Part shown: piece after piece, positions 9,266 through 45,531 of the stretch | How the letters are laid out: each line of letters starts with the position of its first letter | How positions within the stretch are numbered: the stretch's first letter is position 1 | Position numbers and translations under genes: made by a program | Origin: Callorhinchus milii | Taxonomy: Eukaryota | DNA length: 64,000 nt | Reading direction: 5' to 3' | NCBI RefSeq assembly: GCF_018977255.1 | Contig: NW_024704743.1 | Location: 20,028,001-20,092,000 of the forward strand | The notes under the pieces: model-generated | Databases searched by the model: none | Told to the model about the DNA's origin: nothing | The model's input: only the letters and a program-made list of their open reading frames with translations

Positions 9266-9334
9266 CTTGTCCAAGCAGTTGACTTTCTCGGTGGGATAGA
9301 CGATTTTCCCGCAGCGCGCACACAGCGGATTCAT
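9266..9334 (-). CDS. NEBL/LASP1: Coding exon 1 of a LASP-family LIM protein gene (LIM-nebulette/LASP2 or LASP1): [23 protein letters not shown]
   Basis: ATG at 9334-9332 in context GAGAAAATG. The 69-nt phase-0 exon ends GACAAG|GTAATC (GT donor). Peptide and exon length match the conserved LASP1/LASP2 N-terminus. The paralogue cannot be resolved from peptide alone; the short intron 1 and gene-free upstream region lean towards NEBL (inference). Confidence 0.95.
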
Positions 9335-11295: not shown

Positions 11296-13790
11296 CTGTG
11301 AGGAGATGCTGGACTTCCTCGAGACCAAAATCGAGGGGAACTGCTCACCAACCTCTGCCCTCCTCAGCGCTAAACCCTCCACATCTCCCCCTCACACTCC
11401 GGCCCCTATCATTCTCTCCCTCCACACCTTCGAACTTGTCTCCCCTTCCTCTCTCACCACCAATATAACCCACATGAAACTCACCACCAGCTCCCTCGAC
11501 CCCCTCCCTATCCCTCTCCTTACCTTCCAGCTCCACCTCCTTGGCCCTCTACTCACAGACCTTATTAACCTCTCCCTGCCCACTTTACCTCCACAAACAG
11601 TTTCTCCTCCAGCCCACCCACCATCTAGTGCAGTGTTCCTCAGGATTCTGTCCTTGTTCTTCTCCTCTTCAACTTGTATATGCTCCCTTTTGGTGATATT
11701 ATCTGCAGACATGGGGTCAACTTCCACATGTACGCAGATGACACCCAACTCTATCTCTTCTCCACCCTCGACTCCAGGACAACTGCTCTGCTGACAGAAT
11801 GTCTGTCAGCCATCAAGTCCTGGATGAGAGCTAACTTTCTACAGTTGAATGTCAACAAGACCGAGGCTCTCCAGATTGGCTCCCATCAGCACCTCCTCAC
11901 CTCAGGCACTGACAGCATCTCCATCCATGTTTGCACACTCCATCTTACTAAGCCAGTCCAGAACCTGGGCATCTTGTTTGACCCTCAACTGTCCTTTCTC
12001 CCTCACACTTCCTCTGCCTTACCCCACCTCTGGAACAGCACCCGGCTCTGCCACAGCCTCACCCCTCAGGCCGTCGAAATCCTTATTCATACATTCATCA
12101 CATCTAGGCTTGAATACGCCAACTCCCTGCTTGTCAGCCTTCCCAAATCTTCCCTCCACAAACTGCAGATCATCCAGAACTCTGCAGCTCATGTCCTCTT
12201 CCGTACCAGGTTCAATGACCCTATCACCCCCACCCTCGCCTGGCTCCACTGGCTTCCCATTCCTCAGAGTTGAAAAACCTCGTCCTCACATTCAAGGCCC
12301 TCCACTGCCTTGCCCCTCCCGAGCTCTGTGACCTTCTAACCCCTTATCGAGTTGTCCGCTTCCTCGGCTCAGCATGCTCCGGCCTGCCCCACGTCCCCCG
12401 CATCACCTGAGTTAGGGGTTGGAGTGGGTTGGGGGAAAAAACAGGGAAAGAGGAAGATCTTGAGATGGTCCTTGAAGGAGGTGAGAGAAGGGCCAGGTGA
12501 AGGGCTGGAGTTTCAGAGAATGGGAGCTGAAATGTTTTAATGGTAGAGACGGTTGGAAGCGTGGTATAAATGTATCACCTGAAAGAAGGCACTTCTGACA
12601 ATGCGGCACTCTCCCTTCACTGCGTTGGAGTGTCAGTCTGCCCTAGACTATGAGCTGGACGTCCTGACCTGGGGCTTCAACCCACATCCTTCTGATCCAG
12701 AGACAAGAGTGTTACAAACTGAGCCGGGCTGACAACTGTTCAAAAATTATTGTAGTTACAGTATTTATTACAAATCAAGTATGGAGACATGAGTAACTTC
12801 TTTAATGGTGCAGGCATAAGCGACTTGTTTAATGTACACAGGCGCCAAACAAATTATGTATAATTAAGATGTAAATTATAATGGAGCTTTTGCTTATACG
12901 CCTGCAATTTGTATTAATAACTTCCATTTGCGAATGCCTTGTGTAACTGAAGAGACTTTGGTCAAACGTATATTTTACTTTAAAGCTAAAAGATCTGTTC
13001 TCTTGTTCAAACACATTTGGTTTTCAGTGTTTTGCAGATCTATGAATGTATCCGTTTAAATTCAAAGGCACTTGAGCATTATGGCACCAATGCAACATCA
13101 TGATTTTCTGGAGTTTAGACAATAAGTTATAATAGGGTTTTTTATATTTTTTATATATATCTACATGAGGAAGGAATTCTTCCAACCAATCTGTTTGTAG
13201 CAACTCCCACCGACTGCATCCAAACACATAAAGTGTCCAAGTGTCTGATTATTCATTATTGCAGTTTAAGGAGGCCGGTTGACATATGTCAATGTTCTTG
13301 TTCGGCACCAAACACAAAAATAGGTAGGTTAAGCACTTTGCCAAGTTTTTCCTTTCTTACATTTTCTATGCACAGAAAAATAGCCTCCCATCAAATATAT
13401 GTTGTGTTCAGTCCATCTTGGTATTCACAGTAAATTGCAGGACCTCATCTGAAAATCATTCCTTTTACTCTTGTTGTTGTGCCATTTTCGTCCAGGAATC
13501 TGCACTCCACAGCTGTATTCTTGGAATTGTTTGGAATTCATTGGAGTCAAATTCGCTGCTTCTGGAACGATCGGACCTTCAGCTCCTCTGCCCCCACCCT
13601 TTGGAACCCCATCCCACATTCCCTTCACCTTGCTCCCTCCCTTGCCTCCTTCAAGGCACGCCTGAAGACTCTTCCTTTCAACCATGCCTTCAGCCACCCT
13701 CCTACCCTCCCTGCACTCCACCCTATCTAATCCCAACACAATCCTCAACCCCCCACCGTCCATCCCGCTCAGATCCAAATGTAATTTTGT
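11296..13790 (+). mobile_element. Degraded L2-clade LINE (RT and 3' end), split by the inverted copy at 12404-13567
   Basis: [31 protein letters not shown] and LHWLPI motifs. The L2 3' sequence resumes at 13568 (cggaccttcagc). Confidence 0.9.
12404..13567 (-). repeat. Left arm of a 1.16-kb inverted duplication (copy of 14970-16136)
   Basis: Reverse complement of 14970-16136 with only scattered differences. Paired ORFs give identical peptides on opposite strands (12829-13014 and 15527-15712). Confidence 0.97.
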
Positions 13791-14969: not shown

Positions 14970-16136
14970 TTCCAGAAGCAGCGAATTTGACTCCAATGAA
15001 TTCCAAACAATTCCAAGAATACAGCTGTGGAGTGCAGATTCCTGGACGAAAATGGCACAACAACAAAAGTAAAAAGAATGATTTTCAGATGAGGTCCTGC
15101 AATTTACTGTGAATACCAAGATGGACTGAATGCAACATATATTTGATGGGAGGCTATTTTTCTGTGCAAAGAAAATGTAAGAAAGGAAAAACTTGGCGAA
15201 GTGCTTAACCTACCTATTTTTGTGTTTGGTGCCGAACAAGAACATTGACATATGTCAACCGGCCTCCTTAAACTGCAATAATGAATAATCAGACACTTGG
15301 ACACTTTATGTGTTTGGATGCAGTCGGTGGGAGTTGCTACAAACAGATTAGTTGGTTGGAAGAATTCCTTCCTCATGTAGATATATATAAAAAATATAAA
15401 AAACCCTATTATAACTTATTGTCTAAACTCCAGAAAATCATGATGTTGCATTGGTGCCATAATGCTCAAGTGCCTTTGAATTTAAACGGATACATTCATA
15501 GATCTGCAAAACACTGAAAACCAAATGTGTTTGAACAAGAGAACAGATCTTTTAGCTTTAAAGTAAAATATACGTTTGACCAAAGTCTCTTCAGTTACAC
15601 AAGGCATTCGCAAATGGAAGTTATTAATACAAATTGCAGGCGTATAAGCAAAAGCTCCATTATAATTTACATCTTAATTATACATAATTTGTTTGGCGCC
15701 TGTGTACATTAAACAAGTCGCTTATGCCTGCACCATTAAAGAAGTTACTCATGTCTCCATATTTGATTTGTAATAAATACTGTAACTACAATAATTTTTG
15801 AACAGTTGTCAGCCCGGCTCAGTTTGTAACACTCTTGTCTCTGGATCAGAAGGATGTGGGTTGAAGCCCCAGGTCAGGACGTCCAGCTCATAGTCTAGGG
15901 CAGACTGACACTCCAACGCAGTGAAGGGAGAGTGCCGCATTGTCAGAAGTGCCTTCTTTCAGGTGATACATTTATACCACGCTTCCAACCGTCTCCACCA
16001 TTAAAACATTTCAGCTCCCATTCTCTGAAACTCCAGCCCTTCACCTGGCCCTTCTCTCACCTCCTTCAAGGACCATCTCAAGATCTTCCTCTTTCCCTGT
16101 TTTTTCCCCCACCCCCTCCAACCCCTAACTCAGGTG
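14970..16136 (+). repeat. Right arm (likely source copy) of the inverted duplication
   Basis: As above. The SINE/L2 sequence at its right end continues uninterrupted past 16136. Confidence 0.97.
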
Positions 16137-21211: not shown

Positions 21212-21575
21212 GGAGTCCTGCAGCACAGTGGTTAGAGCACTGACCTCAAAAGCGAGAGATCTGGGTTCAATTCCTGGCAGGGCGAAACGTTGGGCAAGCT
21301 TCCTTACTCCACAGGCCTCTGTTGACCGAGCAGTAAGTAGGAACCCAGTTGTTAGTTGATTGGTGGATCGCTTTTCCAGTGGTAATAATCTCTTCAAAAA
21401 AAATTGGTCTCTCAATCCACGACTGGTTGTGGGACACTGCTGTGCGTAATTAGCTGCCATGTTCACCCACAAAATATACAGTTAATTCACTCTACAGTAC
21501 ATTCTATTAAGTGCTTTGAGACATCGCGAAGATGTGTTAAAATGCTTTATCAAATGCAAGGATAATTATGATTAT
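21212..21575 (+). mobile_element. tRNA-derived SINE, family A, full length
   Basis: Same head, internal gggcaag...gcctctgtt...agcagtaagtaggaacccag, same tail. Confidence 0.85.
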
Positions 21576-23210: not shown

Positions 23211-23691
23211 TTGTGTTTAAAATGGTCTGAAAATGAATTGTTTTTCGGATCTAAGTTGTTAAACTGATCGATTTTACTTTCCATTTGAAGCCAAATATCA
23301 TTAAACTTTTGGCCTAGTAATTACATCCTCGATAGAATATATATTTACCACATCCAAATACAGTATTCTATACCCTTTGATGATAAATCTGAAACAAAGT
23401 AGGCAAAATTCTGAGAGAAATCTTTTTCATGTACAGTACACTTCTTCCATGCCTATCATTTTGTGGTTAATGGTTTGATACTATGTACTTTGTGTTCCCT
23501 GCTCAATAAGTGTATCATTCTCTTTCTCTTTCATCTTAGATATTTTCTAATAATCATTATCAACATAATAACAAATGATAGTTGCACTTGATATAGTGTT
23601 TCATCACATTGCTAAAATATCTCAGAGCAATTCACAGGGTTTACTATAAAGTGTATGACTGTGTATTTATTGTCAACTACAATAACTTGAA

Positions 23692-23907
23692 GCAAAACAC
23701 AAAATACTGCAGATGCTGGAAATCTGAAACAAAGACAGAAGTGGCTGGGAACACTCAGCAGGTCAGGCAGCATCCATGGAGAAAGGAAAGTGAGTCAACG
23801 TTTCGGGTCCACGACCCTTCGTCAGAACTGAAGAAGGGTCGTGGGCCCGAAACGTTGACTCATTTTCCTTTCTCCATAGATGCTGCCTGACCTGCTGAGT
23901 GTTCCCC
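23692..23907. mobile_element. Palindromic Penelope-like (pLTR-derived) non-autonomous element with 13-bp TSD and hammerhead-ribozyme cores
   Basis: ACAATAACTTGAA at 23679-23691 and 23908-23920; hairpin 23747-23906; CTGANGA...GAAA cores on both strands. Confidence 0.8.
23793..23829 (-). ncRNA. Putative minimal type I hammerhead ribozyme
   Basis: Minus strand reads AGUU CUGACGA A GGGUC GUG GACCC GAAA CG UU GACU. It has the core CUGANGA/GAAA, a 5-bp stem II, palindromic AACGUU for stem III, a GUU triplet and stem I AGUU/GACU. Confidence 0.6.
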
Positions 23908-25058
23908 ACAATAACTTGAATTTATATAACACCCTTCAGAAAGGGTACCATCTGGGACCGCAATGTCGAATGAGGCAGCTGATTTTCTCACAGCAATGTC
24001 CTTCAAACAGCTTTTAAACGAATGACGAATTTTATCTAGGGAACAGTTGACCAGAACACCGGGAGAGAGATTTCTTCTTTGTCTCTGTGAATAGTGTTCT
24101 TTCAGGTGTCACCTTTGTGGCAGAACGTTGAAGCCCCCACAATTGGGACTTTGTACAGTACAATGTCAGGGCTGTGCTTCATTGTTGGAAGTCCTTTGTT
24201 AAACCCAGGCCCAGTCTGCTTGTTTAGGTGGACTTTAAAGATGCCATACCACAACTTGAAAAGAGAAAGGACTTTCTCATTCACTTCATTGGATGCTGTG
24301 TTCGCTTACAAAATACACAATTACTGCAGTTCACAGTAAATATCCTGTGAAAGGCTTTGAGATGGCTCAACAATGTGATAGGGCACTCTATCAAAGGTGA
24401 GGATAATAATTATTATAATGCCATGGATTTTCCTTCAACCAATTTGCGCACAGTGATATCCCACAAATAGCTATGGAAGGAATAAACATTTTTATTTGGG
24501 CTGTTGGCAAGGAATCCAGGACAAATTCATTTTGAATAGTGCTGTGGGATCTTTAGTGTTTGCTTATTGAATAGCAGCCTTTATATTTAGAAGTTTTCCT
24601 CATCAATTTGAAAAAGTTTCTTGATTCAGTTGGAATTATTTCTCCAATCTCAGGTTGTGAAACCAACCCTCCATAATGGATCATGTGGATTGTGACGTTC
24701 CACTTTTAGAGCACACTGTCCCACATAAACACACCTGCAGTGATACACTTACTCACAGACATGAACACATGCATAATACATACAATCAAGTCTCAAATTG
24801 GACCTCTGAGCTCACAGTCTAGGCTGTGGCCTCTCTGTGGTAACTGTGTGCTCGCTCTATGGCAAACACTGGTGTCATGTTTCAGAACTGAGTTATGATT
24901 CAAAAATTACTCTGAAACCTAAGAAACAAGGAAGTTAAAAACCTTATTATTTTCAGTTATTTGCCACTAAAATTATTTAATCAATGCACAAGTGATATTA
25001 CCGCCGACCATTTGCTTTGCGGCTGAAACATCAGCAATTGTGCCATTACTTCCATAAT

Positions 25059-27785: not shown

Positions 27786-29859
27786 TTCTGCGTGCTTGAT
27801 GCAGAAAATATAAAAAGGGTAAACAACAAGAACTGAGAGTACATGAGATTTCAAAAACTAGAAAATGTTTCATTTTTGTGCGTTATCATAATAAGCGCTC
27901 AAGAAAAGGCCAAGATTAACACTCCTTTAATGCAACAATAAAATTTCCATTCCCATAAACATCCAAATGATAAATTATGAGTCCATTGCCCAGTGACATT
28001 TTAAAATCTCCTGAATCCAAGTGTTTAATGATTGCATTTTGCTTCCAGTTAGTAGTAGATTTAAAATGTAATTAGATCATATAAATCGGTACTATTTGCA
28101 ACATGATGCATTATTCAATGTTCCATTTAAGTATCATCAGCTGAAAACATTCTTTGGTCTTGTGTGGTAGACATTGTTACCAATTTGGCCTTTGCACCAG
28201 GACCCGAGATCTGAAATTCCACCTAGTTTTAGCCTAAGGCAATTATTTTGGCTGCAAGCAGAATACCAAGGAAGCACAACGCAAAGAGAATCAGCACAAG
28301 AATTAGAATCGTGGGAAATTGTGAACTTCAGCCTTAATTTGGAAGCTGTTTCTGTTTAAGAACTGAAACAATTGACTTTAAAGACTTAATACTGTACTGA
28401 ATTTAAGATTTTCCATACTTCTGCGCTATTGTCTAATAATTTAAGACAAAATAACTTTAGCTGGAGCTTTCCAGTACCTATAATTGGAAATTCTGTCAAA
28501 TAATTTACTTTTGTTGTGAGAGGTTAGAACAGACGAGTGTGCTACATTGAGGCTATTATCTTGAAAGGAAGACTGTCATGTCATCGACGTATAAAAAAAA
28601 GTCTGGTTTTGGCTGAAGTTGCAAAGTTTTATTCAACATGAGAGCCAAATAAGCAGCAAATTCACAGCATGCCAAACTGAATCCAACTAGGGTTCAGAGT
28701 TTCACAGCAGTGCTGCATAATTATGTGTGATTGTTTTTACAGTACCCACTGGGGAAAAGCAGCAGAAGCCTGTTTTTATTATGGCAAATAAATAAGAAAG
28801 TAAACAAAGTTGAGAATGAGAAAAGGTCATTTCGCCAATTGAAGCCCATTGCTTTTGGATATAACTTTCAGATCATGTCATCTAATTACTTTTTCAATAA
28901 CCCCAATGCTGTTGCATCGATTTCATTGCTCGGTTTAAGATGATTTTTAAATTGTTATCACTCTTTGAGTAAAGTGTTTTTTTTCTGACATCTGTTCTAA
29001 ATTTACTTTTCACTAATTTCCATTTATGTCCTCTGGTCCCACTTTTGTGACTGACTTTGATGTAATGGTCTAGGTTTTCCTTATCTATATAATTTTATGT
29101 ACTCAGAAGTCCCTTCTTAACCATCACTTTCCTTCATCATAAAGCTTACATTTCTTCAATCTTTCTTCGTCTCTCATCCCCTTTACACTTGGGATTAGTT
29201 TGCTGCTCTTTTCTATAACTTCTCTAATTAAAGTCTAGCTTTTTTATGGTGTGGTAACCCAGATTGAACAGAATTATAATGTTCATTTTGTACTCCGGAA
29301 GCAAGGTAACATCGCTTCCCCTTGTAGAATGCAAAATTGCAGTTATATTGCCTGCTTGAAATCATTGCTGCCTGAGGCTGAAGAGAGCTCTGGGTTTGCA
29401 CAATTAAACCTCAGTGTGACCAAAGAAACAAACTCTCCAATAACATTAAGAACCTGGGCCCAAATTTCTACCTACCCTGTCAAGCAAAACCATTTTCTTA
29501 ACATTTAAGGTCATCATTCAGAACTCTTGACAATTCAAATTCAATCTTAATTTCAAATCCGCTTTTGCACAGCAATGTTTAAGAACTGCAGAAACTGTCG
29601 TAAGGTCTCAAGGCTAACAATACATGGAATTTGGGTCTTTGGAGAGCCTGAGAAGTTTAAAAATATAAGTTTAAATGTTTGTTTGGATTTGACACCAATA
29701 TTCATTCAATTATACTGTAGTTCTTTACATCAATTCTGATGCAAAGATCACAGCAGTGTTGGTGGTTTCTCCGGGACGCTGCCCCATATGAAGGATACTA
29801 AATAAATGCAAGTTGTTGGTAGTTTCAGGAACATGGCTCAAAATGGATTGATGAGAATT

Positions 29860-30057
29860 ACAACAAGTTTCATTTATAAAGCACCCTTCACATGGGGCAG
29901 CGTCCTGGAGTATTTGATAGTGGCAGAGTCTGATCCAGAGCCAAGGGGAGAGGGAGTGGGAAGGTGACCGTAAGCACAACCAAATAGAAAGGTCTTTAGG
30001 CAGAAATTGAAAGAGGGGAGGGAGGGGGCAAGGTGGAGGGATTGAGATAGAGAGTTC
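29860..30057 (-). mobile_element. L2 3'-end fragment on the minus strand
   Basis: Translates [16 protein letters not shown]...LKTFLF; L2 tail reverse complement near 29865-29890. Confidence 0.8.
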
Positions 30058-44919: not shown

Positions 44920-45531
44920 TAATTTGATATAGAGCCTTATCACATCTTCTAGATGTCTCAAAGTGCTTCACAGGATGTATTAGAAAGGGAAAGGCAAAAT
45001 ACTGTAGATGTTGGGAATCTGAAATAAAACCAAGTCGCTGACAGCATCTATGGAGAGAGGAAAGTAAGCTAACGCTTCAGGTCGAACTCTAAACAGTTCT
45101 GACAAAAGGTCATTGACCTGAACCCTTAACTCACTTTCTTCTCTCCATAATGCTGACAGTGACTTCTGTTTTTATTTCAGATTTCCAGCATCTGCAGTAT
45201 TTTGTTCCCAGTGTGTTATAGCGTTTACTGTATATATATAAAAGTATATGTATATATTATAAAGTATAGCGTATTCCCAGTGACTTCTGCTTTTATACTA
45301 TAAAGTGAATTGAATGTATATTTTGTGGGCAAAACGAAATGCATGGATTGAATGACCACTTTTATTTAAGGGATTATTACCCCAAAAAAACAAGCTGCCA
45401 ATTGACTAACAACTGGGTTCCTACTTACTGCTAGTAAACAGAGGTGTGTGGAGTAAGGAAACTTGCCCAACTTTTTATCCTATCTCTCGCTTGCGAGGCG
45501 AGTACTCTAACCACTAAGCAATAGGACTCCA
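44920..45531 (-). mobile_element. tRNA-derived SINE, family A, interrupted by a palindromic element
   Basis: Head at about 45480-45530, tail at about 44920-44980. Confidence 0.75.
44996..45204. mobile_element. Older, decayed copy of the palindromic Penelope-like element
   Basis: Terminal arms caaaatactgtagatg...aatctgaaataaaa and ttttatttcagatttccagcatctgcagtattttg; centre cagttctgacaaaaggtcattgacctgaa. Confidence 0.75.

Follow-up and report, generated by a model that had tools for sequence, protein, structure and literature searches.

A head-to-head pair of end repeats within one target-site duplication

The 216-bp insert at positions 23692 to 23907 of the window (i.e., the whole 64-kb stretch of DNA that was analyzed) is interpreted as a head-to-head pair of end copies from an element with a very high copy number, most likely a Penelope-like retrotransposon. 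The insert is enclosed by a perfect 13-bp direct repeat, of which the A/T-rich left copy occupies positions 23679 to 23691 and the right copy positions 23908 to 23920; 3000 random site pairs of equal spacing gave a maximum of 10 nt. Together with the change in G+C content from 26% in the nearby flank to 50% inside the insert, this identifies the repeat as a target-site duplication, from which it follows that a single event brought in the insert. Two inverted arms of 79 nt each (23747 to 23825 and 23828 to 23906), separated by a 2-nt gap, are 95% complementary, with mismatches at 4 of the 79 positions (right-arm positions 23832, 23845, 23863, and 23878). Alignment of the repeats and arms reproduced exactly the 216-bp insert, perfect 13-bp repeat, ~79-bp arms, and 2-nt loop that had been described in an earlier note on this DNA.

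Contigs of four sequencing runs, taken from 24 listed, were aligned to positions 23500 to 24100 at 80% likeness, these being X4 and X15 (organism A), X7 (organism B), and X8 (organism C). X4, X7, and X8 are DNA runs; none of the listed runs is recorded as RNA, and the assignment of X15 to RNA is no more than a guess, with no cover from this run on 23500 to 23562. The two junctions of the insert are backed by two separate X4 contigs, of which one spans 23500 to 23713 with no letter difference and 2 gap letters and the other spans 23879 to 24100 with neither letter differences nor gap letters, and no contig covers the whole insert. The site as excised in silico returned no other cross-junction match in the window, save one weak match of 35 nt. 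A diverged contig of organism C matches 23500 to 23682 and then leaves, and the joints listed (15 of 417) include none that leads to 23921.

The unpaired left stretch (23692 to 23746 [55 nt], minus strand) corresponds to the 3′ end of the family and, based on a step in contig depth and on loose contig ends, represents the 3′ end of the native copy, including a likely “tail” at approximately 23693 to 23730 (38 nt). It is succeeded by the native (sense) end-repeat arm (23747 to 23828, minus strand), which, as arm alignment and the flanks behind 23828 and 23830 indicate, is 5′ truncated just upstream of the hammerhead core. The inverted partner arm (23828 to 23906, plus strand) begins at the core and is tail-less, as judged from the arm alignment and from contigs which continue past 23906. 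At the junction lies a mini-palindrome, TCAG-AA-CTGA (23822 to 23831), whose center, CAG-TT-CTG, is native minus-strand sequence in the longer family copies, which match through position 23830. The native arm and tail (23692 to 23775, minus strand) also harbor a short open frame that begins with an ATG, as well as a pyrimidine tract that terminates in CAG. The Penelope open reading frame (ORF) of other elements starts in the equivalent region, and protein searches found no full-length protein matching the frame.

Hammerhead cores and their predicted folding

A minimal type I hammerhead is located at 23793 to 23829 on the minus strand, identified by core scanning, by folding, and by features shared with the min-HHRs described in PMC4209133. 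It comprises a 4-bp stem I (with one G-U pair), CUGACGA, an extra A, a 5-bp stem II, GAAA, and a palindromic ACGU, and its cut site is predicted to lie after GUU (23797). A second core, recognized by sequence and folding at 23828 to 23860 on the plus strand, is devoid of stem I (AGAA faces GACU). Since the plus arm begins at the core, without the native upstream strand, stem I is confined to the minus core; the set of minimal-hammerhead features (core, stem II, stem I, and palindromic stem III stub) is consequently complete on the minus strand only. Both cores read as the earlier note had presented them, with a minimal core on each strand and stem I on the minus strand alone, and its attribution of the motif and of the inverted end-repeat pair to the minimal type I, Penelope kind was likewise sustained, as the features match those reported in PMC4209133 and the published insertion pattern. 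Stem II of the plus core contains a G-U pair arising from a private change at 23845, where most aligned contigs carry A.

Matches to CUGANGA-stem II-GAAA in the 64 kb are limited to the two insert cores. When the window was shuffled 100 times by dinucleotides, the mean was 0.06 and the maximum 1; the motif with a 4-bp stem I was observed once and in none of the 100 shuffles. The invariant core letters of the minus core are all unchanged, and family variation, among the 40 of 95 rows listed, affects N7 (23832) and positions in stem II and its loop but none in the invariant core. The covariance-model search that the earlier note had put forward did not recover the hammerhead, as Rfam returned three tRNA-like matches and no hammerhead over the window, and 7 matches around the insert, every one of which fell below its gathering score. 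The silence of the Rfam hammerhead models is presumably due to the motif having no stem III loop.

The insert hairpin folds at −159.1 kcal/mol (z = −20), with none of 200 shuffles being as stable, and in the whole-element RNA the probability of every stem I and stem II pair was 0.0. Forcing the hammerhead fold upon the whole RNA costs 48.7 kcal/mol for the minus strand and 41.7 kcal/mol for the plus strand (stem II only), rendering a switch between hairpin and ribozyme unlikely; the proposal of the earlier note that the RNA alternates between a double-stranded hairpin and a self-cleaving fold thus runs counter to these predictions. When the native half was folded alone, stem II was predicted with a probability of ~0.95 and stem I with one of 0.53 to 0.77, the hammerhead lying 3.2 kcal/mol from the ensemble. 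The dimeric hammerhead scored −15.7 kcal/mol, compared to −29.5 for a mispaired dimer and 2 × −11.4 for the monomers, values from which the tertiary energy of the core is left out. The sequence order implies that the blocking arm is transcribed before the core on the minus strand and, because the cores lie on opposite strands and each transcript carries one sense core, the two cannot dimerize in cis. The hammerheads are, on these models, predicted to be passenger motifs which are locked inside the hairpin and inactive here, and any transcript across the insert would be expected to fold as a long hairpin rather than as a ribozyme.

In vitro, monomers of min-HHRs have been reported to be inactive and dimers to cut poorly (PMC4209133; PMC6765202, citing Lunse et al. 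2017). Of nine Xenopus dimers, one cut. In the anole, the hammerhead required the element's own protein, and in vitro insertion was unaffected by hammerhead mutants (PMC11167929).

A very large repeat family in three organisms

Contigs related to the insert numbered 13,958 (X4), 31,525 (X7), 31,667 (X8), and 4,959 (X15). The summed depth climbs about 1000-fold at 23689; in X4, it amounts to 5.6 on the unique flank and to more than 120,000 from 23689 on, which is not a copy number. These data show that the insert is one copy of a very large family.

Among the loose-end rows listed (24 of 1769), ends bearing A-rich unrelated flanks lie before 23693, 23694, or 23700 in all four runs, the 3′ end before 23693 being represented by 359, 367, 487, and 124 contigs (X4, X7, X8, and X15, respectively) and that before 23700 by 189, 227, 360, and 52 contigs (same order). 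A second end, before 23731 and 31 to 38 nt inside, was found in 135 contigs of X4 and 39 of X15 within the same rows. The sequence behind 23828 consists of unrelated T-rich flanks in 121 (X4), 230 (X7), and 294 (X8) of the contigs so listed, with an agreement of 0.34 to 0.36; these are single-arm copies which start at one point, a preferred 5′ end before the core. Behind 23830, the same rows present a single shared sequence, in 140, 262, 340, and 60 contigs (X4, X7, X8, and X15, respectively). As this shared sequence represents longer copies, the minus strand is the native sense strand and the mini-palindrome is native. Between 162 and 348 of the listed contigs per DNA run extend into the tail behind 23906, which the right arm of the insert does not.

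The depth at 23840 relative to that at its mirror position, 23813, was 1.0% (X4), 2.0% (X7), 1.8% (X8), and 1.4% (X15), which weakly suggests that fold-backs at the center of the insert hairpin are a minority within the family; the ratio is a weak guide because single-arm contigs fit both arms and short-read contigs under-represent hairpins. Of the 32 listed pieces, which derive from three organisms, 20 run across the center and extend 31 or more letters to either side of it, and other diverged hairpins with a similar center therefore exist in all three organisms, although the listing comprises the longest pieces out of over 83,000 and so favors two-arm contigs. The joints between arms vary (23803 to 23849, 23816 to 23864, and 23824 to 23867, among the 15 of 417 listed), and were called at 80% likeness, a level at which joints call for caution. 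Scans of DNA collections with arm motifs of 20 to 21 nt yielded no viral locus and 6 metagenome and 5 genome loci, all 11 of which were dismissed as chance matches, each matching only 20 to 23 nt.

An older relative is located within the window at 44994 to 45208, as established by motif scan and alignment. It constitutes a complete fold-back in which each arm has a tail and the cores have decayed, its arms share a deletion of ~19 nt relative to the main copy, and it carries the same CAG-NN-CTG center (45094 to 45101) as the main copy; no clear target-site duplication was found for it.

The window consists of animal DNA, presumably of a cartilaginous fish, in which LINE fragments (RVT_1 in 5 of the 84 frames scanned) and tRNA-like repeats abound. 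Approximately 14 kb from the insert, starting at 9334 on the minus strand, lies what we take to be a LASP1-like first coding exon, which has a splice donor and sits inside long CA/GT microsatellites. An inverted duplication (12404 to 13567 and 14970 to 16136) of ~1.17 kb, with 98.8% identity and copies 1.4 kb apart, is either a recent event or an assembly artifact. An imperfect palindrome at 29769 to 29910 (59-nt arms, of which 49 of 59 positions match) is unrelated to the hammerhead family and possibly represents a small miniature inverted-repeat DNA transposon (MITE). A dispersed repeat family, probably of SINEs, shows its tRNA-like heads at 759 to 830, 21214 to 21285, and 45476 to 45527.

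Probable assignment to the Penelope-like elements

Since no reverse-transcriptase partner was found, membership among the Penelope-like elements rests on structure. The structural hallmarks of endonuclease-bearing Penelope-like elements have been described previously (PMC8557442, PMC3846280, and PMC8969392), and the insert displays a hammerhead motif in the end repeat (pLTR); an adjacent, inverted, 5′-truncated copy arranged head to head with a junction palindrome; a one-sided tail, present on the left side only, for which the family ends give 31 to 38 nt versus a published 30 to 40 bp; and 5′ truncation with a fixed 3′ end and a target-site duplication at an A/T-rich site. This combination corresponds to a published Penelope insertion pattern, in which an adjacent inverted 5′-truncated copy, a one-sided tail, a duplication, and a head-to-head junction palindrome occur together (PMC8557442; PMC3846280). 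Counting against a complete fit, the unpaired 55 nt exceed the 30- to 40-bp tail, and the right arm fails to reach the 23731 end by 16 nt.

The earlier note had proposed mobilization by a Penelope reverse transcriptase, of which the structural part stands, while the enzyme itself was absent from the ORFs of the window and from the protein matches. No reverse-transcriptase or GIY-YIG ORF is present in the insert, and GIY-YIG was found in none of the 84 window ORFs scanned (of 100 of at least 90 amino acids, the 16 omitted being of low complexity or holding X). A protein search with the 40-amino-acid end-repeat frame gave 4 candidates, none at an E value of ≤1, and a second search with the frame gave 3 matches, none of which was a reverse transcriptase. 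One of these, P0001, is a predicted protein on a 1.5-kb JGI/IMG contig with 65% identity to the end-repeat frame, and is probably a false gene prediction on animal DNA within that collection; it was rejected as a protein link to Penelope, being a 71-amino-acid frame over a similar end repeat without a Pfam family, and the other two matches are unrelated.

Proposed route of insertion and alternative explanations

The route by which the insert arose is inferred by analogy with the Poseidon element of the anole, for which a Penelope-like enzyme cuts both strands of A/T-rich DNA and two internal starts of reverse transcription define the tail (PMC11167929). The insert was likely built in one integration event. 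In such an event, the Penelope endonuclease would have cut the A/T-rich site (26% G+C) with a 13-nt stagger, and the reverse transcriptase would have started at the tail end (23693), copied ~136 nt, and halted at a favored stopping point (23828) immediately ahead of the hammerhead core. The new strand may then have turned at the native CAG-TT-CTG mini-palindrome, after which the inverted arm would have been copied for 79 nt and joined to the other target end; this would be compatible either with the new strand folding back on itself or with two strands being primed separately and then annealing. It may be that the preferred 5′ end corresponds to the start of the RNA template. Extending this, we tentatively suggest, as a doubtful but possible scheme, that the Penelope RNA template of this lineage begins just before the core and that an internal start at the tail yields a fixed mini-copy of ~136 nt, which the CAG-TT-CTG palindrome folds back as new DNA. 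Many thousands of mini-insertions would then record the making of head-to-head repeats from a sense template, and some of the hairpins may themselves be mobile units.

A rather unlikely alternative is that a non-autonomous master, composed of hairpin plus tail, was transcribed and retrotransposed whole by a Penelope enzyme. The recurrence of the CAG-NN-CTG center in the second copy of the window (44994 to 45208), the center-crossing pieces from three organisms, and the clean target-site duplication are all consistent with such a master, and non-autonomous Penelope derivatives are known (MRC1; PMC8557442). Against this, single-arm and longer copies share the 5′ point, such that a fixed center needs no master, and the pieces cited in its favor, being the longest out of over 83,000, are biased toward two-arm contigs. 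Moreover, the arm ends vary (a tail on one side in the insert and on both sides in the relative, with joints at several positions among those listed), the two arms of the relative share one deletion, and a 79-bp hairpin would presumably make a poor template for reverse transcription. The earlier note had taken the duplication as a sign that the unit moved as such; the duplication does support one retro-insertion event, yet it is no proof that a pre-formed hairpin was copied, because duplications likewise border ordinary Penelope insertions that contain an inverted end repeat (PMC3846280).

Considerably less probable is a functional RNA, be it a riboswitch-like molecule alternating between hairpin and self-cleaving hammerhead or a circular-RNA retrozyme. 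Although the letters of the minus core are intact and the native half, on its own, forms stems II and I close to its ensemble, the predicted cost of this fold within the whole element is 48.7 kcal/mol (minus strand) or 41.7 kcal/mol (plus strand), the blocking arm precedes the core on the minus strand, and stem III requires a second molecule, in which the dimeric hammerhead scores worse than the mispaired dimer. The head-to-tail repeat is also absent, and the in vitro record of min-HHRs detailed above argues in the same direction. A MITE, with the arms as terminal inverted repeats, is scarcely credible. The insert is short and non-coding and has inverted arms and a flanking duplication, as a MITE would, but its arms are not terminal (55 extra nt lie on one side), copies of the family end one-sidedly and are often single-arm, and a hammerhead motif would not be expected by chance. 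Target duplications of DNA transposons are usually shorter than 13 bp, and the duplication of the insert exceeds that. Assignment to a DNA transposon from its repeat and duplication pattern, an outcome which the earlier note had allowed for, was accordingly not borne out.

Taking the end-copy interpretation as the preferred one, the single copy matters little, a known retroelement class having left behind very many such remnants. As material, the family has a wider use; counting its junction palindrome across a genome, along with the fixed 3′ and preferred 5′ ends, would allow a test of how Penelope inverted repeats form, which is still unexplained. Head-to-head junction palindromes are common, and self-priming on an antisense template has been proposed, with the matter left open (PMC3846280); if the template-start reading is true, the mini-insertions bear on that question. 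If transcribed, such inserts would also be a source of long double-stranded RNA.

Comparison with known systems

Non-LTR retrozymes resemble the insert in being small and non-coding, with a type I hammerhead and kinship to Penelope end repeats, but are head-to-tail repeats which yield circular RNA (Cervera and De la Pena 2020, PMC7229834; Li et al., bioRxiv 10.64898/2026.07.22.740005), whereas the insert is head to head with one sense core per strand. As it contains one head-to-head pair only and no head-to-tail repeats each with a hammerhead, a retrozyme as defined was rejected, and the term “retrozyme-like” applied in the earlier note is unsuited to the insert, animal retrozymes being head to tail.

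The insert shares with the Poseidon element PAc of Anolis carolinensis (Frangieh et al. 2024, PMC11167929) the two fixed 3′ ends that define the tail, the end-repeat hammerhead, and the A/T-rich targets. PAc, an autonomous element, has been assayed in vitro, whereas the insert is known from its end geometry only and may belong to Poseidon, Neptune, or another clade.

The min-HHRs of metazoan Penelope-like elements (Cervera and De la Pena 2014, PMC4209133) are alike in type I topology, a 4-bp stem I, an additional base ahead of stem II, the G10.1-C11.1 pair, a palindromic 15.2-16.2, and the absence of loop 3. Pairs of min-HHRs on opposite strands and 100 to 700 bp apart have already been reported in that paper, whereas the cores of the insert abut (2 nt), with a stem II of 5 bp. 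The main text of PMC4209133, in the portion examined, makes no mention of cartilaginous fish, and none of the papers listed by our literature search deals specifically with this fold-back family in that group; the repeat libraries Repbase and Dfam lay outside the search and may contain the family.

The insert also closely resembles the complex insertions of endonuclease-bearing Penelope-like elements (Arkhipova et al. 2013, PMC3846280; Craig et al. 2021, PMC8557442), with which it shares head-to-head inverted end repeats, a junction palindrome, a one-sided tail, a duplication, and an A/T-rich target. It departs from them in being without any ORF, in the truncation of both copies as far as the hammerhead core, in its 13-bp duplication (8 to 10 bp in the rotifer cases), and in its unpaired part of 55 nt (30 to 40 bp in the complex insertions), with no enzyme partner found for it. 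Both the insertion pattern and the opposite-strand hammerhead pairs are already in print, and the insert is an ordinary example of them.
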